From Octopus vulgaris (taxonomy: Eukaryota), in assembly GCA_951406725.2 (NCBI GenBank), contig OX597842.1, positions 21,266,001 through 21,330,000 of the forward strand: a stretch of DNA of 64,000 nt, given 5' to 3'. A model generated the notes under the pieces. It saw nothing but the letters and a program-made list of their open reading frames with translations, searched no databases and was not told the origin of the DNA. Of the stretch, positions 11,648 through 62,380 are shown piece after piece. Made by a program: the position numbers and the translations under genes. The stretch's first letter is position 1, and each line of letters begins with the position of its first letter.

Positions 11648-11723
11648 GCGGTACATATTTCGGGCCTTTATTAGACAGATTTATAACAATGCATAATGTA
11701 TGTCTGTGGCCTTCTTCAGCCGC
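11648..11723 (-). ncRNA. Hammerhead motif, copy with a 2-nt deletion in stem III
   Basis: Mirror of 12789-12866 but reads GAAATATGTA instead of GAAACATATGTA. Confidence 0.5.
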
Positions 11724-12788
11724 GCACAACAGCTTCCACAAGGACATGTGTTACATCAAAAATTCTTGGTTGGGGATGCAAATCCTCTCATTCGCGTACG
11801 ACATAATGCGGCAACAGCATAGAATTGAAGCGTCCATCTCTTTCTTCTCTCAATGTAGAATGAGGAAATTTGGATGTTGAAGTAATGTAAATAAATAAAT
11901 ACATATATAGACGTGAAGATGAAGGGGCGAGAATTCAGGACGAGGGATAAAAAATGTATGTATAAAAAGTGTAAGTATAGAAAAATATAAAAATGTAGAG
12001 TATAAAGATATAAAGGGATGTAAGGAGATGTAAAGGGGGTATAAAGAATATAAAGAAATATAAATGAATGTAAAGGCATAAGGTTATAAAGTAAAGATAG
12101 AAATAGAAGTAAAAGTAAAAAGTAAAAAAATAAAAATAGGAATAAACATGATAAAAATGTAAAAAAATATAAAAAAATATAAAGATAAGGGATGTATAGA
12201 GGTTACGGACCAAACATGGTGGTCAGGAGATTGATAAAGTTTAGTTGTAGAAGTTGTCTGGGGACCTAGTGTGTTGTAAATCAGAGCTGTTGAGCGTTTA
12301 ATCTAGTTCTTTGAACATCCCTTATCTTTATATTTTTTTATATTTTTTTTTACATTTTTATCATGTTTATTCCTATTTTTATTTTTTTACTTTTTACTTT
12401 TACTTCTATTTCTATCTTTACTTTATAACCTTATGCCTTTACATTCATTTATATTTCTTTATATTCTTTATACCCCCTTTACATCTCCTTACATCCCTTT
12501 ATATCTTTATACTCTACATTTTTATATTTTTCTATACTTACACTTTTTATACATACATTTTTTATCCCTCGTCCTGAATTCTCGCCCCTCCATCTTCACG
12601 TCTATATATGTATTTATTTATTTACATTACTTCAACATCCAAATTTCCTCATTCTACATTGAGAGAAGAAAGAGATGGACGCTTCAATTCTATGCTGTTG
12701 CCGCATTATGTCGTACGCGAATGAGAGGAATTGCATCCCCAACCAAGAATTTTTGATGTAACACATGTCCTTGTGGAAGCTGTTGTGC

Positions 12789-12866
12789 GCGGCTGAAGAA
12801 GGCCACAGACATACATTATGCATTGTTATAAATCTGTCTAATAAAGGCCCGAAACATATGTACCGC
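12789..12866 (+). ncRNA. Type I hammerhead ribozyme
   Basis: GCGG-CTGAAGA-aGGCC...GGCCc-GAAAC-ATAT-GTA-CCGC; palindromic stem III ACATATGT. Confidence 0.75.
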
Positions 12867-38914: not shown

Positions 38915-39181
38915 TTAAGGTGATAGGTCTCCAGTTTTTATTTCATATTATCACTCATGAATGCTATAATCTATAACTATATTCTTCACTCTGATCGAGA
39001 TTCAGTTTTTCTTTATTTTAAAATTATGACTTTGAAAGTAAGCGAAATCAAGGATAAATTCATCGCATGAAACAGGGACCAATATTTGTCCTTCGTAGAA
39101 TTTGCAAAATGAATGAAATAACAATAGAGTGTCTGATATTTTGTATTTTCTTGTTTTACAGATTAATCTACACATGAAAAT

Positions 39182-39372
39182 ATGCTCCGGCAAAATCACC
39201 ATTTTATGTTGACTTTTGTGTTGATAATGTACATGAGATTTCTTTTGGAGTCTCATGCTGTTTCAGACGTTTGCAGTATTCGTAAATGGATTTTTGGAGG
39301 TGATGAAGTAGACTGTAGAAATCTCAGTTTGACTTCTGTTCCACAAAATATTGGCCAGAACGTTAGTGCTTT
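39182..39372 (+). CDS. LRR protein, first coding exon: signal peptide plus LRR N-terminal cap
   Basis: Acceptor tttcttgttttacag ends at 39161; MLRQNHHFMLTFVLIMYMRFLLESHAVSDVC...EVDCRNLSLTSVPQNIGQNVSA; phase-2 donor TT|gtaagt. Confidence 0.88.
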
Positions 39373-40587
39373 GTAAGTATTGGACATTATTTTTTACATA
39401 TTTGCCATATTCAATGATTTAAATTCTCATTTATTAAGTTGTAAGTAAATACCTTATGGTGTTGATTTCACATCGTGAAACACCATGTTACATTCTAGTA
39501 AAGGAAGTCGATATATTTCTAGCTATGAAGTCAAGTAGACTGTTTTTCAGTACATATTGACTTATCTCTAATTTCCATGTCTAAGCGGTTGTACCGGGTT
39601 GTATTAAACAGAAAATTGTCTCACGAAATTCCGACTGAAAAGGTGACGTTCCTACTCCCACACTGTTTTCGATATTGATTGAAATTTGTGGTTTAAAAAA
39701 AATTTTTTTGTTCCCAAACAACACTTATTTTAGTGCTGTTCACACCGCCGGATTGAAGGGCAGTGCCCAGGTGTCGAAACCATAATGGTAACCATGGGGT
39801 AGCTGATGATACAGGTATGTTGCATTGTTCCTATGGTTGTGGAATAGTATTATAACACACATCCTTTTAATATAGAGATGTGTGTGTGTGTGTGTGTGTG
39901 TCTGTGTGTGTTTGCGTGTTTGTGTGTCGGTAGATTAAATTTACGGGAAAATAAAAGTCAAAAACAGGTGTTAGATTCAACACTCGGGAAAGTGAGAGCA
40001 TCTTTTACTTTCGAGCCTATGCTCCTCAACAGAAAGAGAAAGGAGAACATGAACAAAAAGGGATTAAAAATCTTGTCGATTTAGGGATCAAGCATGGCAA
40101 CTGGTTAGGAAAAACATAGCTTGATGGGAGAGATAGAGAGTCGGGGAGATAATAAACAACTGGAGATCCCGCGTTGGGATGTGTATGTAAGAATGTGTAA
40201 GTGTGTGTGTGTGTGTGTGTGTGTTGATAGGGCTAGTGACTATGATGTATGGGTGCGTCTGTAATGTGTGGGTGTGCGAATGATTGTGTATGGGTGTGTA
40301 GATGATGTTTTTTTGTCTGGGTATTGGAAAGTGGTTAGTGCTAGTACTAGCACAAGCACAGACACACAAATATATATAGATTTATGTATATATTTGTGTT
40401 CCCTCAAGATCACCTAATAACCAGTGTTGGTGTTACACACCCTGTAACTTAGTGGTTCGGCAAAAGACACCGAGAGAATAAGTGCTAGTCTTTCAACAAA
40501 TAAATGCTGGGCTCGATTGGTTCGAATAAAGGCTCTAGCATGGCCATTGTCAAATTACTGAAAAGAGTACATGTATAAACGTGTTGC

Positions 40588-40633
<46 letters not shown>

Positions 40634-40791
40634 TATACATATATACACACACAAATTTATACATATATATATATTGGTATATGTGTATATGTGTTTAACT
40701 ATCTGTCTGGCGATTGATAGATGTATTGATAAAGTGATAGATGGATGGATAGATCGATAGATTGATAGATAGATGGATAGATAGATAGATG

Positions 40792-40859
<68 letters not shown>

Positions 40860-41402
40860 CATGTCTCCAGTTCTAGTTTAGTCTTCTTTACCCTTTTTAT
40901 CTCATTTATCAATAACTGCTCGTCGTTAGTTTTATTCCTATTCTCATCCTTCTCTTTTGTTATAGTTTCAACTTTGCATATCAGCATCATCCTCCTCATC
41001 ATCATCATTCCAAATATTAAGAGCACCATCGGTAAATATTGTCATCATAATCATCGTCTGCGTCCTCGTGGTGGTCGTCACCATCATCGCCATCATCACC
41101 ATCATCATCATCCATATCATAATCTGGAACCACAGATGCAATGCCAGCAGACCGAAACGACTTCATCACTACAAAATCCGTCACCGTCAATGCCCTCATC
41201 ATCATAATTATCGCTTTCATCATCACTTAACACTATGCCATACACCTTTAAAATCTTCACTTATCATTTTTATAATCGTCTTCACCAAATTGTCTCACTT
41301 CTACTTATTTATCTTCTATTTCAGCAGCTAATTCATTGGACATAATCTTTGAAATATATGACTAATCACTTCTATGTTTTTTCTTCATGAATTATCTTTC
41401 AG

Positions 41403-41474
41403 AGATCTATCCAATAATGCAATCGTGAAAATTGAAAATGGATCGTTTGCAAATCTTCCGAGCTTAAAATATTT
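41403..41474 (+). CDS. LRR exon 1 (72 nt): LDLSNNAIVKIENGSFANLPSLKY
   Basis: tatctttcag acceptor, gtaagt donor, phase 2/2, fits LxLxxNxIxxIxxxxFxxLxxLxx. Confidence 0.92.
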
Positions 41475-41769
41475 GTAAGTTGAACCAGTCTTGTTCATAC
41501 TATATTCCTGAGTATATATTTCCTCAAATTTAATATCTTTCCATCTTTCTTTCTTAACCTTCTTTTGCCCTTCTCTAACTCACATTATCTCTCTCTATAT
41601 ATATATGTATGTGAGTGTGTGTGAGTTGAGCGTGTTTGTGTGTGACGATGTGTGTTTACATAAGTCTTTATGTTCTACATCACTGTTTGGTATATTGTGA
41701 AAAGTGCGCGTATAGTCATATGTATATTTATGCTTGAAAATTGTGGATAAATATATAGTCCGTTAATGT

Positions 41770-42815
41770 TACGTCTTTGGCAGGAGATATTAAACAATTC
41801 TGCGACGATATCACGTTGTAATTTTACCTCGATAAATGAGCAAAAGCTACATTTATCAAAGGAAAAACGACAGAAACATCCCGCAGAATGTCATAAAGGA
41901 ATTAGAACCAGCGGAGAGATACATGTACTTATCGCTATTTGAAGTGGACATGATAAAATATTCAGTGATGAGGGAAAGGATCAGAATAGAATATTATCGC
42001 AGGATAAAAGCAATATTCAAGACAGAGCTGAATGCAAGAAACAGGATCGAAGTGATCAGTACTTTTGCTATACCAGGCGTGACTTACAGTTTCAATATCA
42101 TTAACCCAAAGAGAGCTAATGGTACCGATGTTGACAAAGCCATTACCCATCAATGGTTAGTGTCTTCTAGCTTAAACAAACTCAGACACAGACGGATTTA
42201 ATATAGCAGCTCAAGATCAGGGGCTAACTACAAGAAACTACCATATTGAAGAACGGCAGTCACCCAGCATGTCTTGTATGTAAACAACAAAATGAAACCA
42301 TTGATCATGTTGTCTCCATGTGCAGTCTTCTTGTGCATACAGAATATCTCAACAGGCATGATTGAGCAGCACATCATATTCACTGGTTAATTTGCAAAAA
42401 CATAGACGTGCCACATGATACAATCTGTTGGGGACACGAACACCCTCCAGTTCTTGAAGATGATCGCATCTTATCCTCTAGAACTTCGCCACTCAAAGTG
42501 AAAGAAAGATAGATGCGAGTAGACCAGGCATTATATAGAAAAACTACAGGAAAAAACATGCCTCCTCATTTAAAACTGTCCCAATCGACATAAAAGTATC
42601 TGTCAAAACCTACAAAACTGAGCAAGTGTAAAGATCTTGAAAGAGAAATTAGCAAAATGTGGAAGAAAAACAATGCCTGTTGTCATAGTCTCTCGAGGAA
42701 TTATAGCTTAAGGCCTGAATCATACCTATCTCATATATAAGGAAACCCCAAAATGGCAGCAACTCAAAAGATAGCGCTAATCGGAACCGCCCATATCCTA
42801 CGTAAAATACTGTGT
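41770..42815 (+). mobile_element. Decayed RLE-type non-LTR element (R4/Dong-like), intronic; paralogous pieces at 49005-49350 and 57620-59080
   Basis: IAAQDQ.L.TRNY, CLVCKQQNETIDHVVSMC (CCHC), YLNRHD and RP.II motifs. Confidence 0.75.
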
Positions 42816-44649
42816 GTTTAATTTTATGTTTTGAAACAAACTCATATTCTTTGAACATCCTTCATGAAATTCCCGAACACCGCATTTTTTTCCTTATCTT
42901 CCTGCATTTAATTCCGTCGATATATTAAAACTGTTATGGCTAGTCTCTTCTATTATTGAATGTGCTGATATGATTTCTCGCGTCACACCGCATTCTTATG
43001 AGCCGCCACCACAAAAGACTATTTCCATTTGAAGAAAAGAGTGTTGCAATGAATACCTTATATATAGGTCCTCTAGGCTGAAGCTTTGATACCATAAAAT
43101 GATCCACGAATGAGATGTGTATCACCGAATGAAAACAAAGCAATTCTGTCACAATACACTACATGCACCACCCAGAGGCAGATGTAAATAAACTATACGT
43201 CCCACGTGAGGATGTAAGAGTGCGCAGAAGCTTCTGCCACTCTCGTAAAATAAGAGTAACCATAAGGTTAGATGACAAACAAGAAAAGCATAGACTGTTT
43301 ATTAGTATGAAAGTAGTAAGACATACACACCTTTCTTTTTCAGTAATTTCCTAAACCTGTCTTGCCACTTGTCACAGTGAGGTGGTGTGGTGCTACCCAG
43401 ATCAGGTTTTTCATCACATATCTGTGAAACCAAGAAATCCTCCACCCTACTCCAATTCCGTGATGTTTTGCCCTCGTACCGAAAGCCTCGCTAACGCAAC
43501 ATCTAATCACAGAGAACCAAGCTTTCTTTGAGGCTGCTTATGAAGTGCTTCAAATTGTATTTTCGACCCAGGACTACGTTGCTCAGCCTTTTTCACAGGA
43601 AATCGCTTCCTTCTCTTCAAGGAGGATATTGAAATGTCATGTACGGAGAACTTCCAAATGATCCATGGCAGATGCTCTATTTTTAACTCCAGGTCTTAAA
43701 ATTACCGGGAGACATCACATGTCCACTGTAGATAGTCGCCTTTCAGAATCCTTGTTGCTTTCACAAATAGATTATGTGTCACTCCGGTTTAATTTAAACA
43801 CCTTCCCCAGGTTTTTCACTGTCTTCTTGATGATGGATAGTGAGTGACCGCTACTGACTGAGGAATACCTGCTTCTAAGGCCAACTTTGTTGACTGACGA
43901 AGCTGAAACTCATGTAACTCCTAGTCATAAACTACTGAAGTAATTTTAGGATCGTCCATGCCATTATGGCAGATGTTGTGAAGAAAGTTAGGTCAAGACT
44001 ACGACTACAAGTACTCCATCTTCCTTGGTATGACTCAGCTTACAGATGCAGTTTAGTATTCCCCCACTTTTCACTATATTTACTTGGGTGGTGTGGATTT
44101 CTCTCTCACTCCACCCTCACCGTCATTATAAATGGAATTTTAAGGTTTCGATGAGAGTTTGATCGTATTATCTCTCTCTCTTCAACCGTTCTGTATTCTC
44201 CACCACACTACCTCTCTGCTTATAGCCTGTTCGCCTGGTCTTCTTAGTTCCAGTTCATTTGAATGGTTCCAGCAAGCAAAATGTGTTGTAGGTTACTGCG
44301 ATCCAGCCTCTGGAAACAGGACCGAATCCGGCTTCCTTCAGTGCAGGCGCCAACAGTTGGCATTTGACTAACACAAAATTAGGATTTCATTGGAAACGCA
44401 TTTGTTACTCATTCTGTCTGTGATGTACTGTGCAAGCAGGAACCTGTTGTGATTTGATGATTTTGATATGGAATCTTCGGCATTTAGCCTAATTACGGGT
44501 CTCAAATTATTATCAAATACATTTTGTTCGAGTTGTTTCTCAACATTGCCGTGACCCCCACCTTTTATCAGGGCTAAGAATCATCTCGTTCTTCTTCCCT
44601 TTGTTGTAGACACCTGCCATTGCACTCACTGCTATTCATGGCAAATAAT

Positions 44650-45050
44650 TTTAAACTGCGTAAGGCTGATCCTCAAGCCATGGCGACCTCCAACCCGGCA
44701 TCTCGAATACCGCAACAATTTTCCACCATTTGTTGAACGGCGTAGTTTCATTCGAGTGTTGCCGCAAGCCGTCTACGTAGACGGTTAAGAGCTTCACAGT
44801 CAATGGACCAATAACCTCCACAAACTGATGCACGTAGTGTTCCCTAAAGGCCGCAAATATCTGCTTAGAATCGAAGAGAACGCATCTAACCTGATTCATC
44901 AACACTAAATTGTTTTCCGTTGCCACGTTGCACCTACGCTCATTCGCCCATATGTCGGACATTGTCATTAAATCATGCAAAACTGAAAACAATCCTCGTG
45001 TTTACCGTTGGAGAAGCGGACAAGAGTCAATCTTGTCGGTGGCAGCGCCA
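44650..45050 (-). mobile_element. Old L1/Tx1-like fragment; paralog at 60930-61330
   Basis: FAAFREHYVHQF...YVDGL...SPWLEDQPY resembles the region upstream of the RT seen at 63800-64000. Confidence 0.5.
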
Positions 45051-45627
45051 TTTGCAGTGTATTGGGTAGCCCCTTTATTCCCTCTAGAGTGTGTTCCTGT
45101 GTAGAAATATATATAAATTTATATGTATATAATTCATATTTGTGTGTGTGTGTGTATCTGTGTTCCTGAGCTTAAATGTTTTCCCTCACCTCTTCATTTA
45201 CTTATATATAAATTCACATATATTTTTTCTCGTTCATATGGAAAAGTTATTACCTTCCTAATTCTAATTGATTCTTTATAGATCTTTTCACGGTTAAACA
45301 AACAGAAATTGGAATTTATGCTGCAACATTCAAAATTTTAATCAAGTTGAATTTAAATTTACATAGGACGTAGATTTCGTGAATATCAATGTTAATATTA
45401 AAACTAGCGAAATCATAATACTCTATCATTAGTTTAAACGAAGTGCATTTAAAGAACGGTTTAAATGCAACAAAATTTATAGTTTGAATTCCGTGTTATA
45501 TAGAGTTTTGCATTTAAACGGAGGGGAAACTATCTAAATTTATTTATAAATAAATAAATAGGTAGCGATGAAATGACTTAAGGTCACCAAGAAAAATGGA
45601 CACACAAGCATGAAATATATATATATA

Positions 45628-46213
45628 TACAACTTATAAACAAGGGCAAAAGAAAGAGAATTCAATGCCAAATATGCCGAAATAGACTTAATCGTCAATA
45701 ACCATATAATTTATCACTATACGCACGCGTCTCGAAAGCAAGTTGATAGAAATTTCCTACAAAATTTCGTTCTTATCGGATCGATCCCCATTTCTGAGTT
45801 AATTCATTTAGAATTTTCTCGTCATCAGCGATAAATACGATAAGAAAATAAATGAGATACTTACTTGTACCTATGGAAGAAGTAAACACTAAGTCATGTG
45901 CACACTTAAGTACCCCAAATATATCCAAACTAGAAATTCCGCAGCATACCTCGAGGCTCGTGTGAACGGACTGGAAATTCTCTTGGAGAATTCTATTATC
46001 GTATTTATCGCTGATGACGAGAAAATTCTAAATGAATTAACTCAGAAATTGGGATCGATCCGATAATAACGAAATTTGTTTTCGAAAATTCTATCGGCTT
46101 GCTTTCGAGACGCGAGCTTATAGTGATAAATTATATGGTTATTGACGATTAAGTCTATTTCGGCATATTTGGCATTGGATTATTTTTCTTTTGTCCTTGT
46201 TTATAAGTTGTTT
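45628..46213. mobile_element. Foldback/MITE-like element with about 220-bp inverted arms
   Basis: 45628-45848 is the reverse complement of about 45995-46213; the paralog at 61930-62275 has lost the right arm. Confidence 0.75.
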
Positions 46214-46584
46214 GTAAATTTAACCTTTAAAGGCATTTTTTTAATGTGCTGGCCATTGATAACATTTTTTCGAATATTTTATCCTATATTAGATGTAAAT
46301 TTAATACTATTCACTTCCGGACTCTCTCACTCTATGAGAACTTTCAGTCCGATCACACCTGTCTCGAGGTATGCTCTGGAAGTTAGTGTTTTAACCTCCT
46401 ATATATTGAATGATTGCACTATTGTGGTCGTTAAGGTTTTACTTTCATATCATACTACGGAAGACGGTAGAGATTATAATTTTTGTATGATTGAAAAGAT
46501 TTCACGCTGTTTAGTTACGTACTTAGGAGTTGTAATTTACTTATTGAATTATCTATTGATACGGTTATACATAGGGTAAATGTG

Positions 46585-46925
46585 AAGGCGCATGGCTCAG
46601 TGGTTAGAGCGTCTAGCTTACGATCGTGAGATTGTGAGCTCGAATCCCGGACCGGGCTGCGTGTTGTGTTCTTGAGCAAAACACTTTATTTCACGTTGCT
46701 CCAGTTCACTCAGCTGTAGAAATGAGTTGCGACGTCACTGGTTCCAAGCTGTATCGATCCTTGTCTTTCCCTTGGATAACACTGGTGGCGTGGAGAGGGG
46801 AGACCGGTATGCATGGGCGACTGCTGGTCTTCCATAAACAACCTTGCCCGGACTTGTGTCTAGGAGGGTAACTTTCTAGGTGCAATCCCATGGTCATTCA
46901 TGACCGAAGGGGGTCTTTACCTTTT
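46585..46925 (+). mobile_element. tRNA-derived SINE with 8-bp TSD
   Basis: ggcgcatggctcagtggttagagcg...gagctcgaatccc head; TSD taaatgtg at 46577-46584 and 46926-46933; empty site at about 62375. Confidence 0.9.
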
Positions 46926-47124
46926 TAAATGTGGTTGAATTTTGTGGTTTCTTTGATTTCCCATACAACACCTATTTTAGTGATGTTCACACTGCCGGAA
47001 TGAAGGCTAGTGACCAGGTGTCGAAACCATAATGGTAACCGTGGGGTAGCTGATGATATAGGTATGTTGGATTGTTGCTATGGTTGTGGAATAGTATTAT
47101 ATCACAGATCCTTTTAATATATAG

Positions 47125-47169
<45 letters not shown>

Positions 47170-47993
47170 TGTGTGTGCTTGCGTGTTTGTGTGTCGGTAG
47201 ATTAAATTTACGAGAAAATAAAAGTCGAAAACAGGTGTTAGATTCAACGCTCGGGAAATTGAGAAATTCTTTTACTTTCGAGCCTATGCTCCTCAACAGA
47301 AAGAGAAAGGAGAACATGAACAAAAAGTGATTAAAAATCTTGTCGATTTACGGATCAAGGAAGGCAACTGGTTAGGAAAAACATAGCTTGATGGGAGATA
47401 ATAAACAAATGGTGATCCCAAAACAATGGTGCACGTGCGGTGGTGTATGTAAGAATGTGCAATTGTGTGTGTGTGTGTTGATAGGGGCAATTGACTATGG
47501 CGTGTGGATGTATGCGTGCGTAGCTGTGTGCGTGCGTAGCTGTGTGCGTCTGTAGTGTGTGGGTGTGTGGATGATTGTGTATGGGTGTGTAGATGATGTT
47601 TTTTTGTCTGGGTGTTGGAAAGTGGTTGGTGCTAGTGCTAGCACAAGCACAGACACACAAATATAGACAGATTTATGTATGTATTTGTGTTCCCTCAAGA
47701 TCACCTAATAACCAATGTTGGTGTTACACACCATGTAACTTAGTGGTTCGGCAAAAGGCACCGAGGTAATAAGTGCTAGTCTTTCAACAAATAAGTGCTG
47801 GGTTCGATTAGTTCGAATAAAGGCTCTAGCATGGCCATTGTCAAATTACTGAAAAAAGTACGTGTATAAACGTGTTACATACACACACACACACATATAT
47901 ATATAGACACACAAATATATACCTATATATATTGGTATATGTGTGTATGTGTTTACGTATCCGTCTGGCGACCGATAGATGTATTGATAAAGT

Positions 47994-48046
<53 letters not shown>

Positions 48047-48640
48047 GTAGATAGATAGATAGATAGATATATACATGTCTCCAGTTCTAATTTAGTTTTC
48101 TTTACCATTTTATCTCATATATCAATAATAGCTCGTCGTTAATTTTATTCCTATTCTCATCCTTCTCTTTTGTTATAGTTTCAACTTTGTATTTCAGCGT
48201 CATCCTCCTCATCATCATTCCAAATATTAAGAGAACCATCAGTAACTATTGTCATAATCATCGTCTGCGTCCTCGTAGAGGTCGTCAACATCATCGTCAT
48301 TATGATCATCCTCATCATCACCATCATCATCATTCTTATCAGTCATAATCTAGAACCACAGGCTCAATGCCATCAGACCAAAACAACTTCATCACTACCA
48401 AATCCGTCACCGTCAATGCCCTCATCATAAAAATTATCGCTTTCATCATCACTTAACACAATGCCATACATCTTCATTATTATCTTCATAATCTTCACTT
48501 ATCATTTTCATAATCGTCTTCACCAAATTGTCTCACTTCTACTTATTTTTCTTCTATTTCAGCAGCTAATTCATTGGACATAATATTTGAAATATATGAC
48601 TAATCACTTCTATGTTTTTTCTTCATGAATTATCTTTCAG

Positions 48641-48712
48641 AGATCTATCCTATAATGCAATCGAGAAAATTGAAAATGGATCGTTTGGAAATCTTTCCAG
48701 CTTAGGCATTTT
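48641..48712 (+). CDS. LRR exon 2 (72 nt): LDLSYNAIEKIENGSFGNLSSLGI
   Basis: tatctttcag / gtaagt, phase 2/2. Confidence 0.92.
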
Positions 48713-49354
48713 GTAAGTTGAACCAGGCTTGTTCATACTATATTCCTGAGTATATATTTCCTCAAATTTAATATCTTTCCATCTTTCTTTCTTAACCTTC
48801 TTTTGCCCTTCTCTAACTCACATTATCTCTCTCTATATATATATGTATGTGAGTGTGTGTGAGTTGATCGTGTTTGTGTGTGACGATGTGCTTTTACATA
48901 AGTCTTTGTGTTCTACATCACTGTTTGGTATATTGTGAAAAGTGCGTATATAGTCATACGTATATTTATGCCTGAAATGTGTGGATAAATATATAGTCCT
49001 TCAACGATTCTACCTGCCAAGAAAAGAGGGTGGCCATAACATTTCCAATTGGAATTAACAATTGACCGAAACACCTACCTAAACAACTCTCACTGGATAT
49101 TAAGACTTGTCTCAAAGCACGAAAACAAGAAGGTGTCATACAAAGTAATAAAGCATGCAAACAAATATATAAACGAATTCCAAATACAACAAATCCCAGA
49201 GTTAGACGTACTAGAAACAAGCTCAGAAAAAGCTAAGCGAATGAAAGTACATGCAAAGAATCTGACTTTGATATTCTTACAGATATATGACAAAGAAAAC
49301 ATCTCAATGGCAAATACCCAAAGAGAGCTAATGGTTCCGATGTTGACAAAGCCT

Positions 49355-49875
49355 GGTGACATCTGCCACGTGAATATAGACATCGATACAGGAATTTTCT
49401 GAGATGCTATCAGCCTTTTCCAAAGCTTCACCACTTCACCCAAGACATAATACGAGACGTCCAGTGAGACGGTGAATCCCTTAGCCGTGATAGGTCCACC
49501 ATTGTCGACGAACATTGGAAAGCGCTCCAGAAAAGCTACTAATATCTGCTTGAAATCAATGAACACTCGCCTTTAGTGATTCATCAAAAGTCAAATTTTA
49601 GTTTCTTGATCTGATGCAGCTCCATCATTGGACCAATCAAGCGACTGATGGCAGCTTTGCTTTCACCCAGCTTTTATCGCATTTACTTGGACGGTGTAAA
49701 GTACATCTCCGGCAACCGTCATATTCCTTTTCAAACGGAGTTTTAAACATTCGATGAGATTCTGGTAGAAGTGTCTGTCTCCAATAGTTTCCATGTTCTC
49801 CGCCAAATACCTCTCCCTACTGTCTGTTTGTCAGCTCTTCTTTGTTCCCGTTCATCTAAAAGTTTCCAACAGGTG
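49355..49875 (-). mobile_element. Old L1/Tx1-like 3' fragment
   Basis: IWRRTWK...LKLRLKRNM...SWVK resembles a Tx1-type C-terminus; weak. Confidence 0.4.
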
Positions 49876-49925
49876 ACCGTTTGCATACATACATGCATGT
49901 GTACATACATACATACATACATACA

Positions 49926-49961
<36 letters not shown>

Positions 49962-49981
49962 TACATACATACATATATGTA

Positions 49982-50012
<31 letters not shown>

Positions 50013-50121
50013 GGAGAGAGAGAGAGAGGGAAAGAGAGAGGGGGAGAGATGAGTGTATTTTTCCCTTGTTAACAATTGACACGGATAAATAGATAAATAA
50101 TTACCAGGGTAGCAAATAAGT

Positions 50122-50177
<56 letters not shown>

Positions 50178-50180
<3 letters not shown>

Positions 50181-51340
50181 ATAAACTTAGATAAACTTAG
50201 ATATGTTTCGACCAAAGATTGGTCCAGGCCATGTCTAACTTAATGGCACCACTTGATAGGATTATCAACATCCTGTTTAAGTCTAGGTTTGTTTATGGTC
50301 CATTCAAGTTGTGGGGTTTTTGTTGAGTGAGTTGTATCCAGGTATGGGTGGCTTATCTGGTATTCCTTGAAGAAATCTGTCCAGACTCCGTTTAAAGTTG
50401 ATGGGATCCTTTTCCTCTTTGATCTCTTCCGGCACAATGTTAAACAGGGCAGGGCCTGTTGAGGAAAAGAAATTATGTTGCAGTGAATCTATATACTGTG
50501 ATCCTGAGTTGGGCAGGGGACGTGGTCCCAGCCTTGGATGAACCTTGAAAGTAATGCTCAGCTCGTTTGGGCAAAGTTGGCGGTATATTCTCCACATCGT
50601 ACAGATGATGTACCGCTCACGGCGACACTGGAGAGAGTAGAGGCTTTCAATTCGTTTAGTGAATGCCTTCTGGGGTGATTGAATCTTCGAGATGTTTTTT
50701 CTTGTATGGGGAGACCACAGTGGGCAGCAGTATTCGAGTTTAGCCGTACAAAGGAGGTGAAAAGTGGTATGATGACACCTTGTTCTCCGGACCGGAAGGT
50801 TCTTAAGATCCAGGAGCTCATCCTACGAGCTATATCGACCTAATTGTTGAAGTGGGCACTCCAACTGAGATTGTCATCAACAATTACGCCCAGGTTTCTG
50901 ATATTGTTAGAGGCTGTGAGCGGTTCCCCTGAAGGAAGAGAATATGGCTGTTTTAGTGTGGACTTTCTTCCAAAATGTATCAGCTCAAATTTTCCCTCGT
51001 TCAGTTGAATTTTGATTTTGTCTGCCCTTTGACTCACAGCATATAGATCAGACTGGAGTTGAGTTCGGTCCGCTTCTTCATTGACGATTTGCTGGAGCTT
51101 AGTGTCATCAGCAAATATTTTCCCGTTGCGGTAATGTACGACACTGGAAAGGTCATTTCTGTGAATTATAAAGAGGAGCGGGCCCAAGAGAGTCTGGTGA
51201 CTTTTGCTGGGCTTGAGTGGACTCCATTGACTACAACATGTTGTGTTCTATTCGCTAGGAAATACTTAATCCAGTGCAGAGGTTTTGCACGGATTCCAAC
51301 ATTTGCCAATTTTGAGAGTAGGATCATTCGAAAATCTACC
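50178..51340 (-). mobile_element. CR1/L2-group LINE RT and 3' end
   Basis: GPLLFII, IFADDTKL, LGVIVDDNLSW, FKRSLDRFL; short tandem tail (aaacttagat)2. Confidence 0.88.
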
Positions 51341-52658
51341 CAGATTATGGGATTTGTAAGATGGATCAGTCTCGCTGATACATTTTTGTTGACTATATTT
51401 CTAAATATTTAATGTATCCCCATCTTTCTTTCTCGTCCTTCTTTTTAACATTCCCTAAGTCGCATCCTCTTGCTATGTGTGTGTGGGAATGTGTGAAGGT
51501 GCTTGAGAATATGAATGTTTGCGGTTGACATCATTGTTTCATATTATGCATGTGATTGAGGCGGCGTGCTGGTAGATGTGTAATCACGCTGGACAAAATC
51601 TTGAGCTGCATTTCGTCCGCTTTTGATTGCTGAGTTCAAATTCAACCGAGGTCGACTTCACCATTTATCTATATTTAATCGATGATTCGACATAATCAGT
51701 TAGCACCCTCCGCCAGCATTCCAGGACGTGTGCCTATGATAGGAAGGATATTATATAAGTGTTGGCATGTGCATATCTATCTTTCTGTCGCCGGATAATT
51801 ATTCATTCCTTTCATTTCCTTCATTATCTTTTCCTTTACTGTTTTCCTATTGAATTAGAAATACTAAGCAGAACATAATGCATTTGTTTTATGCTTCCAA
51901 AGAATTTGACTGTTTACCGTCAGAAACACATTGGAATCAGAGGACGAGTTGGAGAAAAGTTTGCATTTAGCAGAATCATGCATCTGACACTTTTAAAAAT
52001 GTCCTCCTCCTCTAGGTCTTTCTCAGAAACCCCATTACACCTGTTTTGCTTACCCGTTGCAGTAGTCATCTACAGAAAGATCCTCGAATATGACTAGCAT
52101 ATGTCAGAATAAATCGTGTCAGGATGATGGTGACATCTACTTAGGGCGTCCCTTCATCGATTTTCGAAATTCCGCAGCTGCTTTGCTCTTTTGTTGAACA
52201 GCGTATCTTCACTCGAATGTCGCGGCAAGCCATCCTGGTAGACAATAAAGCACATCCCCGACTATGAGCTACTGTGTTCCACAAAGAGCTGCGCGAAGTG
52301 TTCCTTAAAAGCCGAAAACATCTGTATAAGCTAAAGTAGCAGACAACTCAACCGATTATAGCCCCAGGAGGACATCTTCTCCACTTGGCTAATGACACAC
52401 TGTCTGTGTCTGATTAGTATTTGCGGAAGGAAAAAACCATTGCCATCTCTAGCCTTACGTGATATACACACACCCGCGTTTCGATAACGAGTTACTACCC
52501 AGAAATCAGGGCCTGTGTTTATTACGTAACACCAGAGACGGGAACCATGATATTAGTTCGCAAATAGAAGTAAGACACAAGTGGTGTGTCGCTTTGGCAG
52601 CTAGTGGAGATGTTATCCCGGAGCTATAAGCAACAGTCGCATTATCCCCTATGGGACC

Positions 52659-52696
<38 letters not shown>

Positions 52697-52924
52697 CGCC
52701 ATGGCTCTTAGGAGCACAGTTCGATTTGTTTTTTGCTCCGCCTCTGTTCTGTTTTTGTTTTTCCAACGGATTTCCTTCTTTCTTCCTGAAGAGAAAGACA
52801 CAATATGGTCCCATTATTCAATCGGATTTTGGTAATTTGTGCCTTTCGAAACACGTGTAGAATGAAATAAAACGATTTCTGTTCAATCTGCGTTCAGCTC
52901 CATTTCTTCAATTCATCAATAATG

Positions 52925-52990
<66 letters not shown>

Positions 52991-53392
52991 TTCACAATAT
53001 ATACATGTGTATTTCACTTCATAATTTTCTTGTAATCTCCGCTTCAAATTCTATTTTTTGTACTTCTTTTATTTCATTGTCGTCATAAGCATCATGGCCA
53101 TGAACAAGACCATCACCGTCCTCAACACCACATCCGTTATCATCTCATTATCATCATCATAAACGACATCATCATTAGCATCATCTTCACCATCAGTCAA
53201 CTTCGTCACAAATCATCATTATCAATATCATCATAACCTTGACTTCTCATTATCTTCATCTTCATCTAATTTTTGCACTCCTACTTCCTTTTCTTCTACA
53301 TCTACATCCAGTTGATTAGACATATGCGTATTTAAAATTGCGTGACTAATCATTTTTATACCATTTCTCACCAATTCTCTTTCAACTTACAG

Positions 53393-53464
53393 AAAACTAA
53401 TCAATAATACAATCGCGATTATTGAACATGGATCGTTCGAGGGTCTCACCAATTTAATGACGTT
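53393..53464 (+). CDS. LRR exon 3 (72 nt, more diverged): LKLINNTIAIIEHGSFEGLTNLMT
   Basis: ttcaacttacag acceptor, gtaagt donor, phase 2/2, same tgactaatca branch-point motif upstream. Confidence 0.9.
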
Positions 53465-53999
53465 GTAAGTTTGATCTTCCTGATATTATTAATCTAATTG
53501 TATGTTTCTACATATAATGTCTTCCCTTCTATCTTCGCTCTCTCTTTCATCTTTTCTAACAGACGTTCACTTTGTCTGTGTGTGTTTGTGTGTGATTGTG
53601 TGTGTGTATGTGTATGTGTGTGTGTGTGTGTGTGTGCGCGCGGGCATGAAAATGATTAAGGATATGAGTGTTTTTGGTTTAAATTTGTTATATGATTTAT
53701 ACAAATTAATGTGAACAACGTAACATGTAACAATTAACGATTAAAGATAAAATTCCCCAATACGGGGAAAAGCCACGTAGGACGACCAAGGTGATCCAGA
53801 GATTCAGATCTAACTATATTCGACAATTAGGCGCCAGTAATTAGAAGTAGAATACACATCCAGGTGCATTCCTCCTGTATGATAAGTAAATTGAAACATC
53901 CTATGGCAGAATTCAGGAAAATTAAGACATTTTGACAACAAACGATACATATAGAGACAGTTGCGTTTATTAGATTTCACATTATAAAGCCTACTCTTT

Positions 54000-54400
54000 C
54001 TCTCTCTTTTACTTGTTTCAGTCATTTGACTGCGGCCATGCTGGAGCACCGCCTTTAATCGAGCAACTCGACCCCGGGACTTATTCTTTGTAAGCCCAGT
54101 ACTTATTCTATCGGTCTCTTTTTTGCCGAACCGCTAAGTGACGGGGATGTAAACACACCAGCATCGGTTGTCAAGCGATGCTAGGGGGACAAACACAGAC
54201 ACACAAACACACACATATATATATATATATATATACGACAGGCTTCTTTCAGTTTCCGTCTACCAAATCCACTCACAAGGCATTGGTCGGCCCGGGGCTA
54301 TAGCAGAAGACACTTGCCCAAGATGCCACGCAGTGGGACTGAACCCGGAACCATGTGGTTGGTTAGCAAGCTACTTACCACACAGCCACTCCTGCGCCTA
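54000..54400 (-). mobile_element. SINE family A
   Basis: Matches family consensus. Confidence 0.9.
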
Positions 54401-54652
54401 CAATTGTTTATATTTTATTAACATTGATAAAATCTTCAGTATACAGATGTAGCGGGAGCAATATATAAGGTTGGTAACAAAGATGCAAACACAATGTTAC
54501 AATGCTTATATACACATACATATATCTATACATAAATAAAAAATATGACGAATCTGAATTGTAAACTGAATTTCGTTGCACTCAAAAACATTTTTGTAAT
54601 TGTAGACAGAGAGGCAGATTTAAACATGCAGACTCTCACTGTCTCTCTCTCG

Positions 54653-54689
<37 letters not shown>

Positions 54690-54907
54690 GAACACACACG
54701 AACACACACGCACACACACACATACACAACCACAACACAATTTATAGTCATACACATGCTCACATACATATATATGTAAATATACATGTGTCACAAACAT
54801 ATATATATTATATATACACACGCAAATATATATACACATGTTCACAGACATATAGACAAACATAAATATATATATAGACGTATATATGTATATATAGATA
54901 CATACAT

Positions 54908-54990
<83 letters not shown>

Positions 54991-56019
54991 AAATACCCCG
55001 TCAAATGAACGGTGCTAAGTTGTCAAACATTTAAACCAAATTTTCTCAGACAACTTGTCTGACCGTCCCATAAATCTTCCCTTTGAGAAACACTGATTTA
55101 ATCTAAAGTTGAGACACCAGCAGAAGTAGAAATAAAGATAGAAGTATTCTCTATTCTGAGAAAAACGATTTTACAACTGCACGTTCCCACGGCTTTATCG
55201 ATCGCATTCTTACCTAGAATCAATTTTTGTAATTTTTTCAAGATTTATGCACGCCCTGATAGTGTCGGTATCTTCATATCTATTTTGAGTGCAATCGGAT
55301 GGAGGATGCCCAAGATCATAGAAGACGCACACACACATACAGACAGAACGGATTTTATATAATAGACAAAAAAATTTTTTTGGGGGTTTGTCCATTCATA
55401 ATAAATGAAAATAATAAGTTCGACTGTAGGGTAACTTCTTCAAGGAGTATATCTATGGAGGGACACCGGATTACGTCCACGCAGGATGCTTCACCTCAGA
55501 CTGTAAAGGGAGGTAACTAAATTGAGTTTGGCAAATTTGTTTGTCACTCAACAGTAGTTGAAAAAGAAAATAGAAAATTGATGGACTGTGTATGAAATAT
55601 GCATGCTTGGTGTTAAGGGAAGCAACTCTTATCAGCGCCATATTGTCGATTGTGCAACTAAAGAAAAACGATTTCACACGGCTTTATCGATCGCATTCTC
55701 ATCTGGAATCGATTCTTGTAATTTTTTCAAGACTTATACACGCCCTGATACCGTCGGTATCTACATATCAAATTTGAGTGCATTTGGATGGAGGATGTCG
55801 GAGATCTGAGAAGACACACACACACATACACACGCACCCACACACGCATACATACTTTCATATACGTGTGTTCGTCTTTGAGTTTCTTTATGTGCCAGTT
55901 GAACAAAACAGTGTGGTTTTTCAGTTTGCTGGAAATAACAGCCAAACCTCTCTCATACTATGGCCTTAATAGTTTTAATGGTTTTGATTTTGTTCGGATC
56001 TATGAATTTTATTATTATT

Positions 56020-56261
56020 TTAGCACAAACACAGACACACAAATATAGACAGATTTATGTATGTATTTGTGTTCCCTCAAGATCACCTAATAACCAATGT
56101 TGGTGTTACTCACACTGTAACTTAGTGGTTCGGCAAAAGATACCAAGAGAATAAGTGCTAGTCTTTCACCAAATAAATAATGCTGGGCTCGATTGGTTCG
56201 AATAAAGGCTCTAGCATGGCCATTGTCATATTACTGAAAAAAGTACATGTATAAACGTGTT

Positions 56262-56334
<73 letters not shown>

Positions 56335-56457
56335 GACACACACACAAATATATACATATATATATATATTGTATATGTGTGTATGTGTTTACCTATCTGT
56401 CTGGCGATTGATAGATATATTGGTAAAGTGATAGATAGATAGATTGATAGATGGATG

Positions 56458-56500
<43 letters not shown>

Positions 56501-56501
56501 G

Positions 56502-56548
<47 letters not shown>

Positions 56549-57377
56549 GGATAGATAGATAGATACATGTCTCCAGTTCTAGTTTAGTCTTCTTTACCCT
56601 TTTTATCTCATTCATCAACAACTGCTCGTCGTTAATTTTATTCCTATTCTCATCCTTCTCTTTTGTTATAGTTTCAACTTTGTATATCAGCGTCATCCTC
56701 ATCATCATCATCATTCCAAATATTAAGAGCACCATCAGTAAATATTGTCATCATAATCATCGTCTGCGTCCTCGTGGTGGTCGTCACCATCATCGTCATC
56801 ATGATCATCCTCATCATTACTATCATCATCATCCTTATCAGTCATAATCTTAAACCACGCATGCAATGCCATCAGACCAAAACAACTTCATCACTACCAA
56901 ATCCGTCACCGTCAATGCCCTCATCATAATAATTATCGCTTTCATCATCACTTAACACAATGCTATACATCTTCATTATTATCTTCATAATCTTCATTTG
57001 TCATTTTCATAATCGTCTTCACCAAATTGTCTCACTTCTACTTATTTTTCTTCTATTTCAGCAGCTAATTCATTGGACGTAATCTTTGAAATATATGACT
57101 AATCACTACTATGTTTTTACTTCATGAATTATCCTTTCAGATATCTAAACCATAATGCAATCGTGAAAATTGAAAATGGATCGTTTGCAAATCTTCCAAA
57201 CTTACGTGAATTGTAAGCTGAACCAGTCTTGTTCATACTATATTCCTGAGTATATATTTCCTCAAATTTAATATCTTTCTATCTTTCTTTCTTAACATAC
57301 TTTTGCCCTTCTCTAACTCACATTATCTCTCTCTCTCGCATTCTCTGTCTCTCTGTCTCTCTGTCTCTCTGTCTGAC

Positions 57378-57448
<71 letters not shown>

Positions 57449-60400
57449 GTATATGTATGTGAGTGTGTGTGAGTTGAGCGTGTTTGTGTGTGACGATGTG
57501 CGTTTACATAAGTCTTTGTTTCTACATCACTGTTTGGTATATTGTGAAAAGTGCGTATGTAGTCATACCTATATTTATGCCTGAAATGTGTGGATAAATA
57601 TATAGTCCTTCAATGTTTCGTCTTGGGCAGTAGATTCTAAACAATTCTGTGATGATATTACGTTGTCATTTTACCTCCATAAATGAGCAAAAGCTACATT
57701 TATCAAAGGAAAAGCAACAGAAACATCCCGCAGAATGTAATAAAGGAATTAGAACCAGCGGAGAGATACATGCACTTATCGGTATTTGAAGTGGACATGA
57801 TCAAATAATCAGTGATGAAGGAAAGGATCACAATAGAATATTATCGCAGGGAAAAGCAATATTCAAGACGGAGCTGAATGCAAGAAACAGGATCGAAGTG
57901 ATCAGTACTTTTGCTATACAAGTCGTGACTCACAGTTTCAATATCATTAACTGGTCAATTATTGAAATATGTAATCTTGACAGAAAAATACGAAAATTGT
58001 TGACAATGCATAGAATGCACCAGACTAAGGCAGATGTAGAACGATTTTACCTGCCAAGAAATGAGGGTGGCCGTTACATTTACAACTGGAATTAACAATG
58101 GAGAGTGCCACAATTGACCGAAATATCTACCTAAACAACTCTCATGACTGGATGTTAAGACTTGTCTCAAAGCACGAAAACAAGAAAGTGTCATACAAAG
58201 TAACAAAAAATGCAAAGGAATATATAAACGAATTCCAAATACAACAAATCCCAGAATTAGACGTACTAGAAACAAGCTCAGAAAAAGCTAAGAGAATGAA
58301 AGTACATGCAAAGAATCTGACTTAGATATTCTTACAGATAAATGTCAAAGAAAACATCTCAATGGCAAATACCCAAAGAGAGCTAACGGTACCAATGTGG
58401 ATAAAGCCATTACCCATCAATGGTTAGTGTCTTCTAATTTAAAATCAGACACAGACGGATTTAATATAGCAGCTCAAGATCAAGTTCTACCTACAAGAAA
58501 CTACCATATTAAAGAACGGCAGTCACCCAGCATGTCTTGTATGTAAATAACAAAAGGAAACCATTGATGATGTTGTCTCCATGTGCAGTCTTCTTGTGCA
58601 TACAGAATATCTCAACAGGCATGATTGAGCAGCACATCATATTCACTGGTTAATTTGCAAAAACATAGACGTGCCACATGATACAATCTGTTGGGGACAC
58701 GAACACCCTCCAGTTCTTGAAGATGATCGCATCTTATCCTCTAGAACTTCGCCACTCAAAGTGACAGAAAGATAGATGCGAGTAGACGAGGCATTATATA
58801 GAAAAACTACAGGAAAAAAGCATGCCTCCTCATTTAAAACTGTCCCAATCGACATAAAAGTATCTGTCAAAACCTACAAAACCGAGCAAGTGTAAAGATC
58901 TTGAAATAGAAATTAGCAAAATGTGGAAGTAAAACAATGCCTGTTGTCATAGTTGCCCGAGGAATTATAGCAAAAGGCCTGAATCATACCTATCTCAGAT
59001 ACTAGGAAACCCCAAATGGCAGCAACTCAAAAGATAGCGCTAATGGGAACCGCCCATATCCTACGTAAAATACTGTGTATTTAATTTTAAGTTTTAAAAC
59101 AAACTCATTTTCTTTGAACATCATTATGGTCATCTCCTTCAGGAAATCCCCAAACACCGCATTTTTTTCCTTATCTTCCTGCATTTAATTCCGTCGATAT
59201 ATTAAAACTGTTATGGCTAGTCTCTTCTATTATTGAATGTGCTGATATTATTTCTCGCGTCACACCGCATTCTTATGATCCGCCACCACAAAAACCTATT
59301 TCCATTTGAAGAAAAGACTGATGCAATGAATACCTTATGTATAGGTCCTCTAGGCTGCAGCTTTGATACCATAAAATGATCCACGAATGAGATGTGTATC
59401 ACCGAATGAAAACAAAGCAATTCTGTCACAATACACTACATGCATCTCCCAGAGGCAGATATAAATAAACTATACGTCCCACGTGAGGATGTAAGAGTGC
59501 GCAGAAGCTTCTGCCACTCTTGTAAAATAAGAGTAACCATAAGGTTAGATGACAAACAAAAGAAAAGCAAAGACTCTCTATTAGTATGAAAGTAGTAAGA
59601 CATACACACCTTTCTTTTTTCAGTAACTTCCTAAACATTTCTTGCCACTTGTCACAGTGAGATGGTGTGGTGCTACCCAGATCAGGTTTTTCATCACATA
59701 CATGTGAAGCCAAGAAATCCTCCACCCTACTCCAATTCCATGATGTATTGCCCTCGTACCGAAAGCCTGTCTAACGCAACATCTAATCACAGACAACGAA
59801 GATTTCTCTGAGGCTACTTATGAAGTGCTTCAAATTGTATTTTCCACTCAGGACTACGTTGCTCAGCCTTTTTCACAGGAAATCATTTCCTTCTCTTCAA
59901 TGAGGATATTGAAATGTCATGTACGGAGAACTTCCAAATGATCCATGACGGATGCTCTATTCTTAACTCCAGGTCTTAAAATTACCGGGAGACATCCCGT
60001 GTCCACTGTAGATAGTCGCCTTTCAGAATCCTTGTTGCTTTCATAATTAGATTATGTGTCACTCCAGTTAAATTTAAACACCTTCTCCAGGTTTATCACT
60101 GTCTTCTAGATGATGGGTAATAAATGACCGCTACTGAATGAGGAATACCTGCTTTTAAGGCCAACTTTGTTGACTGACGACGCTGAAACTCATGTGACTC
60201 CCTGTCATAAACTATTCAATTAATTTTAGGATCGTCCATGCCATTATGGCAGATGTTGTAAAGAAAGTTAGGTCAAGACTACGACTACAAGTACTCCATC
60301 TTCCACGGTATGACTCAGCTTACAGGTGCAGTTTAGTATTCCCCCACTTTTCACTACATTCACTTGGATGGTGTGGATTTCTCTCTCACTCCACCCTCAC

Positions 60401-61890
60401 CGTCATTATAAATGAAATTTTAAGGCTTCGATGTGAGTTTGATCGTCTTATCCCTCTCTCTTCAACCGTTCTGTATTCTCCACCACACTACCTCTCTGCT
60501 TATAGCCTGTTCGCCTGGTCTTCTTAGTTCCAGTTCATTTGAATGGTTCCAACAAGCAAAATTTGTTGTAGGTTACTGCGATCCAGCCTCTGGAAACACG
60601 ACCGAATCCGGCTTCCTTCAGTGCAGGCGCCAACAGTTGGCATTTGACTAACACAAAATTAGGATTTCATTGGAAACGCATTTGCTACTCATTCTGTCTG
60701 TGATGTACTGTGCAAGCAGGAACCTGTTGTGCTTAGATGATTTTGATATGGAATCCTCGGCATTTAGCCTAATTACGGGTCTCAAATTATTATCAAATAC
60801 ATTTTTTTAAAGTTCTTTCTCAACATTGCCGTGACCCCCACCATTTATCAGGGCTAAGAATCATCTCGTTCTTCTTCCCTTTGCTGTAGACACCTGCCAT
60901 TGCACTCACTGCTATTTATGGCAAATACTTTTACACTGCGTAAGGCTGATCCTCAAGCCATGGCGACATCTAATCCGGCATCTCGAATACCGCAACAATT
61001 TTCCACCATTTGTAGAACGCCGTAGTTTCATTCGAGTGTTGCCGCAAGCCGTCTACGTAGACGGTTAAGAGCTTCATTGTCAATGGACCACTAATCTCCA
61101 CAAACTGATGCACATAGTGTTCCCTAAAGGCCGCAAATATCTGCTTAGAATAGAAGAGAACGCATCTCACCTGATTCTTCGACACCAAATTGTTTTCCGT
61201 TGCCACGTTGCACCAACGCTCATTCACCCATATGTCGGACATTGTCATTAAAGCATGCAAAAATGAAAACAATCCTAGTGTTTACCGTTGGAGAAGCGGA
61301 CAAGAGCCAATCTCGTCGGTGGCAGCGCCACTTGCAGCATATTGGGTAGCCCCTTTATTCTCTCTAGAGTGTGTTTCTGTGTAGAAATATATATAAATTT
61401 ATATGTATATAATTCATATTTGTGTGTATGTGTATGTGTTCCTGAGCTTAAATCTTTTTCCCTACCTCTTCATTTACTTATATATAAATTCACATATATT
61501 TCTTCTTGTTCATATGGAAAAGTTATTATCTTCCTAATTCTAATTGATCCTTTATGGCTCTTTTCACGGTTAAACAAACAGAAATTGGAATTTATGCTGC
61601 AACATTCAAAATTTTAATCAAGTTCAATTAAAATATTACATGTGACGTAGATTTCATGAATATCAATGTTAATATTAAAACTAACGAAATCAAAATACTC
61701 TATCATTAGTTTAAACGAAGTGCATTTAAAGAACGGTTTAAATGCAACAAAATTTATAGTTGGAAATCCGTGTTATATAGAGTTTTGCATTTCAACGGGG
61801 GGGGGGGATATCTAAATTTATTTATAAATAAATAAAGAGGTAGCGATAAAATGACTTAAGGTCAGCAAGAAAAATGGACACACAAGCATG

Positions 61891-61936
<46 letters not shown>

Positions 61937-62380
61937 CTTATAAACAAGGGCAAAAGAAAAGAATTCAATGCCAAATATGCCGAAATAGACTTAATCGTCA
62001 ATAACCATATAATTTATCGCTATAAGCACGCGTCTCGAAAGCAAGTTCATAGATATTTCTAAAAAAATTTCGTTATTATCGGATCGATCCCATTTCTGAG
62101 TTAATTCATTTAGAATTTTCTCGACATTAGCGATAAATACGATAAGAAAATAAATGAGATACTTACTTGTACCTATGGAAGAAGTAAACACTAAGTCATG
62201 AGCACACTTAAGTACCCCAAATATATCCAAAAATAGAAATTCCGCAGCAGTGCTCGAGACACGTGTGAACGGACTGAAAATTGTATGATTTAAAAGATTT
62301 CACGCTGTTTAGTTACTTATTTAGTAGTTGTAATTTATTTATTGAATTATTTATTGATACGGTTATACATAGGGTAAATG
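56020..62380 (+). repeat. Segmental duplicate of about 40350-46580 (exon+intron cassette)
   Basis: Colinear paralogous ORFs (e.g. 42940/59217, 43966/60246, 44159/60433, 44910/61190) and shared TE relics. Confidence 0.95.
57141..57212 (+). CDS. LRR exon 4 (72 nt): LYLNHNAIVKIENGSFANLPNLRE
   Basis: atcctttcag acceptor, gtaagc donor, phase 2/2. Confidence 0.92.

Follow-up and report, generated by a model that had tools for sequence, protein, structure and literature searches.

Two described systems are among the closest to the locus examined here. The first is an octopus-specific expansion of adhesion G protein-coupled receptors (GPCRs), group 3 of Ritschard et al. (2019; PMC6408891), whose passages on the group report leucine-rich repeats (LRRs) in 5 of 22 sequences and selection at the level of branches, and propose a role in neural adhesion. 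The second is the brown-algal ROCO genes (Zambounis et al. 2012, PMC3341825; Teng et al. 2024, PMC11378527), whose LRR exons are of type I. Here we examine gene B, an adhesion GPCR gene of Octopus vulgaris whose first LRR exons lie in a 64 000 nt stretch (G000:C29:21266001-21330000, here called the window), together with its recent duplicates gene A (20.79-20.94 Mb, minus strand) and gene C (21.57-21.71 Mb, minus strand). We conclude that selection for new binding specificities probably maintains the diversity of the exposed codons in the one-LRR exon cassettes of this intact adhesion GPCR, with recombination copying and homogenising their surroundings.

Like group 3 as described in the passages of PMC6408891, the gene B family combines a GPS with an adhesion seven-transmembrane (7TM) domain, has LRRs in some members and lies in tandem clusters. 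The one-LRR exons, exon shuffling and concave-face variation of the gene B family are not described in those passages. With ROCO, as portrayed in the relevant parts of PMC3341825 and PMC11378527, the octopus genes share one 72 nt exon per LRR, an exon number that varies between recent duplicates, dead and inverted LRR exons (intronic in ROCO) and positive selection at concave-face residues. However, the ROCO proteins belong to an unrelated lineage and are GTPases inside the cell, whereas the octopus repeats form the extracellular arm of an animal adhesion GPCR, and no Pfam match to the ROC-COR GTPase domain was found among five family proteins. We treat ROCO as a working analogue of the octopus cassette genes, not as a homologue. 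The most likely reading is that exon cassettes undergo concerted evolution combined with diversifying selection, as in ROCO and the fungal het genes.

Four types of LRR exon were named F1-F4, and the following exons of gene B are found in the window.

41403..41474, forward strand: LRR exon B1, type F1 (DLSNNAIVKIENGSFANLPSLKY), exactly covered by spliced contigs from runs X1 and X15.
48641..48712, forward strand: LRR exon B2, type F1 (DLSYNAIEKIENGSFGNLSSLGI), present in the public gene model P0060.
53393..53464, forward strand: LRR exon B3, type F2 (KLINNTIAIIEHGSFEGLTNLMT), present in P0060.
57141..57212, forward strand: LRR exon B4, type F1 (YLNHNAIVKIENGSFANLPNLRE), present in P0060.

Each is 72 nt, bounded by AG and GT, in phase 1-1 and encodes a single LRR. 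As the exon begins within the second Leu of the LxxLxLxxN motif, the exposed x positions correspond to codons 22, 23, 1, 3 and 4, here termed hot codons. The variable codons of B1 are at 41404-41406, 41410-41415 and 41467-41472. An earlier, sequence-only reading had held that the substitutions between these exons are nearly all non-synonymous and cluster at ligand-facing positions, and had inferred diversifying selection, compatible with an immune or chemosensory role; it had proposed intron divergence as the neutral baseline for a check. Its counts were reproduced. B1 and B4 differ at 11 positions, share an identical 46 nt block (nt 12-57) and have a single synonymous codon difference (CCG/CCA), while the 10 differences between B1 and B2 all fall within six amino-acid-changing codons, with the nuance that multi-base swaps such as CCG/TCC include one synonymous step by either path. 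The variable residues that it listed, KY/GI/MT/RE, D/D/K/Y and SN/SY/IN/NH, were also correct. The near-exclusive non-synonymous share is uninformative as evidence, as 10 of 11 changes yields P 0.27 when 78% of sites are replacement sites.

The clustering of variation at exposed positions is unusual relative to chance. Among 17 F1 copies, the proportion of replacement differences (pN) was 0.43 in hot codons, 0.14 elsewhere and 0.014 in the consensus codons, which are purified, and the corresponding synonymous value (pS) was 0.14, with a flank diversity of 0.075-0.10. In the 14 copies that lie outside the window, compared over gap-free intron columns, hot-codon diversity was 0.374 against 0.079 for introns (0 of 200,000 resamples). 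With the window exons removed, the values were 0.382 against 0.096 for F4 (0 of 200,000 resamples) and 0.273 against 0.136 for F2 (P 0.025). Across the 17 F1 copies, variation at the predicted binding-face positions is about four to five times that of the surrounding introns. In eight independent closest pairs of F1 copies, 42 of 120 hot nucleotides differ where 5.3 are expected. A codon mixture test of our own, comparing a ratio of replacement to synonymous rates (omega) of up to 1 with a free omega on flank, combined and exon trees, returned twice the log-likelihood difference (2dL) of 38-108 for F1, 17-77 for F4 and 12-16 for F2.

The cassettes have been shuffled. Gene A has 19 LRR exons, gene B 11 and gene C 9, and the order of types F1-F4 differs between them; around the non-LRR exons, the introns of genes A and C differ from those of gene B by 2.6-3.1%. 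The unit around B1 is present in 17 copies that are 91-100% identical, and that of the B3 type in 12. One such duplication is contained in the window.

40348..45979, forward strand: unit of intron, exon and intron that surrounds B1 and has a duplicate surrounding B4 (56021-62282); the two align in three blocks, at 89-93% identity.

Distances in the upstream and downstream flanks are uncorrelated (Mantel r -0.07 for F1 and -0.06 for F2), a sign that exchange has taken place within the exons or close to them. Gene A contains six units of about 5.9 kb. Their exon diversity is 0.16, synonymous changes included, and intron diversity out to approximately 1.3 kb from the exon is mostly 0.00-0.03 per 144 nt bin, with values of 0.06 and 0.10 in two bins. 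In one pair of gene A exons, 15 of 69 exon bases differ but only 5 of 770 flanking bases. As near-identical flanks surround divergent exons, the introns have been homogenised by recombination and are unable to date the exons. They are not the neutral clock that had been proposed, and an intron baseline overstates dN/dS. The intron-anchored dN/dS values (about 8 for F1 hot codons and 32 for codons 22-23) were therefore distrusted, given both the homogenised introns and the conflict between flank trees and exon trees.

An exon-only comparison does not use the introns. Its neutral null comprised 580 F1-sized simulations in which omega was fixed at 1 and every codon, or every four codons, had a tree of its own. 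The exon-only 2dL for F1, 39.9, exceeded all 580 of 580 neutral recombining simulations (maximum 37.6), and the highest hot-codon diversity that free recombination at omega 1 produced was 0.33, compared with 0.386 observed. For replication, 46 exons of 72 nt were found in three older genes (18.67-18.96 Mb) and two of terminal type removed; 24 of the remaining 44 grouped into nine young clusters. Within these clusters the 111 hot sites had 12 replacement changes, compared with 7 for 239 other sites and none for 143 consensus sites, and just 2 of 127 synonymous sites had changed. Hot replacement changes were in excess of both synonymous changes (P 0.002) and other replacement changes (P 0.004). 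Diversifying selection at exposed beta-strand positions is supported by the out-of-sample, exon-only and replicate tests, and two of the supports first offered for it, the intron baseline and the non-synonymous share, fall away.

Several results weigh against selection as the explanation. The exon-only values for F2 (15.6) and F4 (17.4) are near the 95th percentile of the null (15.1-18.5) and are not significant alone. Compared with introns, the replication set reached P 0.003 only once two of the 18 flanks, visibly and partly non-homologous, were dropped; retaining all 18 gave P 0.13. Ritschard et al. (PMC6408891) did not find any single site under selection in the family. Public gene models omit many of the 72 nt exons, P0002 having none of the nine in gene C and P0060 8 of the 11 in gene B, and this may be the reason that earlier site tests found nothing. 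In genes A, B and C, pN/pS of the non-LRR exons is 0.71-1.07, a sign of little purifying selection and a further reason to discount the non-synonymous share. Values near 1 in these exons, and the homogenised introns, would suit relaxed drift, in which the exposed positions are old and unconstrained and the introns seem young only through conversion. Neutral codons, however, would be homogenised together with the introns on both sides of them, the recombining simulations at omega 1 never attained the observed hot-codon diversity or test value, and the young duplicates have more hot replacement changes than exon synonymous changes. Relaxed drift is largely refuted already, and we regard it as highly improbable.

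The remaining adverse results concern codons 22-23. Here inferred synonymous steps per site (2.24) nearly equal replacement steps (2.42, ratio 1.08), and both rates exceed the synonymous baseline of the exon (0.45) about fivefold. The same bases vary in three probably dead half-exons, where they account for three of five changes (P 0.035, post hoc). One of these is in the window.

51320..51355, forward strand: 3' half only of an F3-type LRR exon, probably dead, with its donor intact; the sole RNA joint that spans it skips it.

The others, which also retain the donor, are at C29:21351925 and C29:20922906, and both RNA joints that pass over half-exons skip them. In all three, read by eye, a CAG further upstream would make an in-frame exon of 81 nt. 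An intact LRR exon with splice sites, one synonymous base from a live copy, is inverted in gene E (G000:C29:18798968, minus strand).

The codon 22-23 and half-exon results could reflect retention of old alleles or multi-base events, but equally local mutability. A hotspot of mutation or micro-conversion just upstream of the donor could generate the diversity of codons 22-23 with the framework purified and little positive selection needed. Whole-codon swaps that lack intermediates would be expected of it, and the codon 22-23 bases are enclosed by a short inverted repeat made up of codons 20-21 and the donor, with a 9 bp stem in one allele. Yet an exon-end hotspot in general was not seen, the donor-proximal bases of 18 non-LRR exons being barely raised (10/108 versus 85/1516), and the intron beside the donor is the least variable part (0.02-0.04). 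No inverted-template signal was detected among alleles (P 0.12-0.81), and the only positive result among eight tests was for direct repeats (P 0.007). Nor does a hotspot explain codons 1, 3 and 4, which are at the opposite end of the exon, are nearly silent at third positions and adjoin codons 22-23 only in the protein. These three codons have 20 extra alleles at positions 1-2 and 3 at position 3 (P 0.026) and a replacement to synonymous step ratio of 2.4, a cleaner signature of selection than that of codons 22-23. We consider the hotspot unlikely to be the main source of the diversity. Two specific mechanisms were also rejected: template switching from a donor hairpin, which left no signal among alleles, and write-back of RNA edited from adenosine to inosine, as A>G changes were not clearly in excess (they make up 43% of changes at A in exons and 35% in introns).

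Selection at a binding face is consistent with predicted structure. The beta-strand of LRRs of this kind forms the concave binding face. In the AlphaFold model of a family member, P0009, the predicted local distance difference test (pLDDT) score of the LRRs is mostly 80-97, with confident strands every 24 residues at x3-L-x5, and the model resembles the folds of LRIG1, LGR5 and LRRTM2. The first regular strand, residues 87-89 (E-L-Y), corresponds to codon 23, the junction Leu and codon 1, so that the variable sites, once placed on the model, map to the strand as had been proposed. Outside the LRRs the model is poor (mean pLDDT 51), and the labels Cys-rich, SEA-like and HRM are therefore by-eye names only.

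Spliced products of these exons were found in contigs from runs X1 and X15, two samples of one study, neither recorded as RNA. Coverage is confined to 41403-41474 and exon ends are joined to exon starts, from which we conclude that these contigs are spliced; contigs from run X13 cover intron only, and run X17 gave no coverage. F1-type exons are joined head to tail. Four of nine distinct joints fit neighbouring reference exons in genomic order, of which gene B accounts for three and gene A for one, and no skipping of a live exon was seen in the nine. The other five have hot-position codons that are absent from the reference exon catalogue and may represent alleles, unassembled paralogues or a sister species. 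Assembly error was rejected as the source of hot-codon variation, as the hot codons of the reference are seen again in spliced contigs obtained independently.

A device like those of the variable lymphocyte receptors (VLRs) of jawless vertebrates or of Dscam, in which somatic rearrangement or alternative splicing of cassettes gives each cell a different receptor, would make use of frame-neutral cassettes and could account for the dead half-exons and the inverted intact exon, for the absence of 3 of 11 LRR exons from P0060 and for the five joints that do not match the reference. The germline gene is nevertheless complete, with canonical splice sites, and the four assignable joints follow genomic order. 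Alleles of other animals explain the unmatched joints equally simply, and exons skipped in an automatic gene model are no evidence of splicing. We assign this device only a very small probability. We also give little credence to an anticipatory repertoire on a GPCR chassis, in which dozens of adhesion GPCRs with recombined LRR cassettes and targeted rewriting of donor-side codons would, via exon skipping or somatic exchange, give cells different surfaces for pathogens, self/non-self or neuronal identity.

The receptor encoded is an adhesion GPCR, neither a VLR nor a nucleotide-binding LRR receptor (NLR). The start of the gene, located and translated, was traced from the loose ends of spliced contigs.

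39162..39372, forward strand: first coding exon, the LRRNT part of which is in P0060.

It contains a start codon at 39182, a hydrophobic leader that by eye is a putative signal peptide and an LRRNT cap, and its end supplies the first x-x-L of the LRR array. It is followed by 11 LRR exons of 72 nt, a 69 nt terminal LRR exon and 19 further exons; the gene runs past the window, with seven more 72 nt LRR exons, the terminal LRR exon and the 19 exons extending to about G000:C29:21436280. The frame is open through the LRRCT, the GPS (CSCYHLTSFAILM) and a secretin-class 7TM, the latter two approximately 100 kb downstream, and genes A, B and C are all open-framed from the terminal LRR through the 7TM. 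Pfam matches in family proteins include 7tm_2, GPS and LRR. PF00002, the secretin-family 7TM, matched P0001-P0003, and the 7TM exon of gene B is 85% identical to P0001; 7tm_2 was the only 7TM match among family proteins in the Pfam searches, and no rhodopsin-class 7TM was found. The GPS motif, with its H-L/T cleavage consensus ahead of the first transmembrane helix, matched PF01825 in P0003 (E 5.5e-15), and the match to GAIN in the relative P0012 was below the cut-off. Residues 640-983 of P0009 match ADGRG6 (E 1.9e-60), a region in which AlphaFold confidence is low.

P0060 (adhesion GPCR G6-like, Octopus vulgaris) is the public model of gene B, and includes three of the four LRR exons of the window. 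It is 48% identical over 1032 amino acids to A0A0L8FLR8, which is in group 3 in the InterPro supplement of Ritschard et al. (2019; PMC6408891). Among the 50 matches listed for family relatives, 49 were named, and all 49 are from Octopus. When the 7TM was used to query the genome, 89 matches were returned, about 50 of them strong.

Other features of these genes and their surroundings were noted. The LRRNT cap also varies, being CSICTCTPGGQEVDC in gene C and CSIRKWIFGGDEVDC in gene B, which gene A resembles; two of the four cap cysteines are absent in B and A. Gene A has a 1 nt insertion in its first coding exon (region of G000:C29:20940354) and one F4 exon of 70 nt (C29:20890244), which may be assembly errors or real lesions, and a spliced contig matches the end of that first exon. 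The last 7TM exon of gene B (last exons at G000:C29:21431801-21436280) is 391 nt rather than the 392 nt of A and C, so its short tail is read in another frame and ends VQAPVMKK as in P0060; the tail of gene C differs again. Beside gene A, G000:C29:20733870-20764994 contains a 7TM exon that is broken, along with an LRR exon one change (codon 4) away from an exon of gene F, which suggests a further, decayed copy. At G000:C9:28.33-28.88 Mb more than 20 weak 7tm_2-like matches are clustered, mostly in open frames of 600-700 amino acids, and this is probably an intronless class B GPCR array. A long inverted repeat at 11655-12857 of the window, with 527 nt arms that are 99% complementary, purine-rich and pyrimidine-rich inner arms and a 149 nt spacer, is possibly a fold-back transposon. 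A repeat search across the whole window returned mostly microsatellites.

If concerted evolution and diversifying selection act together here, unequal crossing-over and gene conversion would copy cassettes within and between genes. As every exon is 72 nt and in phase 1-1, any gain, loss or swap would leave the frame intact. Recombination would homogenise the introns and the framework codons, and selection would fix new concave-face residues and resist their overwriting. Ligand binding would then be signalled via a GAIN/tethered-agonist 7TM module. We put the chance that the ligand is a fast-changing foreign or non-self molecule at about even; a variable self or neuronal partner is a less likely candidate, and an environmental chemical is less likely still.

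Receptors that have to follow changing targets typically combine shuffled cassettes with diversification focused on the surface, and the octopus family is a candidate for recognition of pathogens, of self/non-self or of neuronal identity, with five named codons per repeat. Cephalopods are not known to have a variable-receptor system. In the VLRs of jawless vertebrates, 24-residue LRR modules with a variable concave face lie between LRRNT and LRRCT caps, an incomplete germline gene is assembled somatically from flanking cassettes, and the product has a stalk with a glycosylphosphatidylinositol anchor or is secreted, with no 7TM. The octopus gene resembles them in its 24-residue modules, concave-face variation and caps, but it is complete in the germline, is spliced exon-to-exon in RNA and has a GPS and 7TM after the LRRs. 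Dscam-type arrays contribute one exon of each cluster to a transcript, whereas the octopus contigs put F1-type exons together in one transcript, although some exons may be skipped optionally. The LGR/GRL101 proteins are rhodopsin-class LRR GPCRs; the 7TM of the octopus family, in contrast, is 7tm_2.

A literature search, with the bulk of subscription journals outside its reach, turned up no description of LRR exon cassettes in the adhesion GPCRs of octopus. The expansion of the family has already been published, and the cassette design appears to be undescribed in the literature found. There are two further parallels. In the parts of Paoletti et al. (2007; PMC1805685) that deal with them, the het-d/het-e NWD genes of Podospora similarly exchange repeats within and between loci and have diversifying selection on a few surface codons of each repeat. 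However, their repeats are WD40 and their role in allorecognition is proven, whereas the octopus repeats are LRRs split by kilobase introns. Exon 5 of the primate red and green opsins, an example of a divergence peak under gene conversion as treated in passages of the review PMC3924837, is likewise an exon-sized island of divergence held by selection between homogenised introns, but there the island involves two genes and two fixed sites, and in octopus it is repeated over dozens of cassettes with many alleles.

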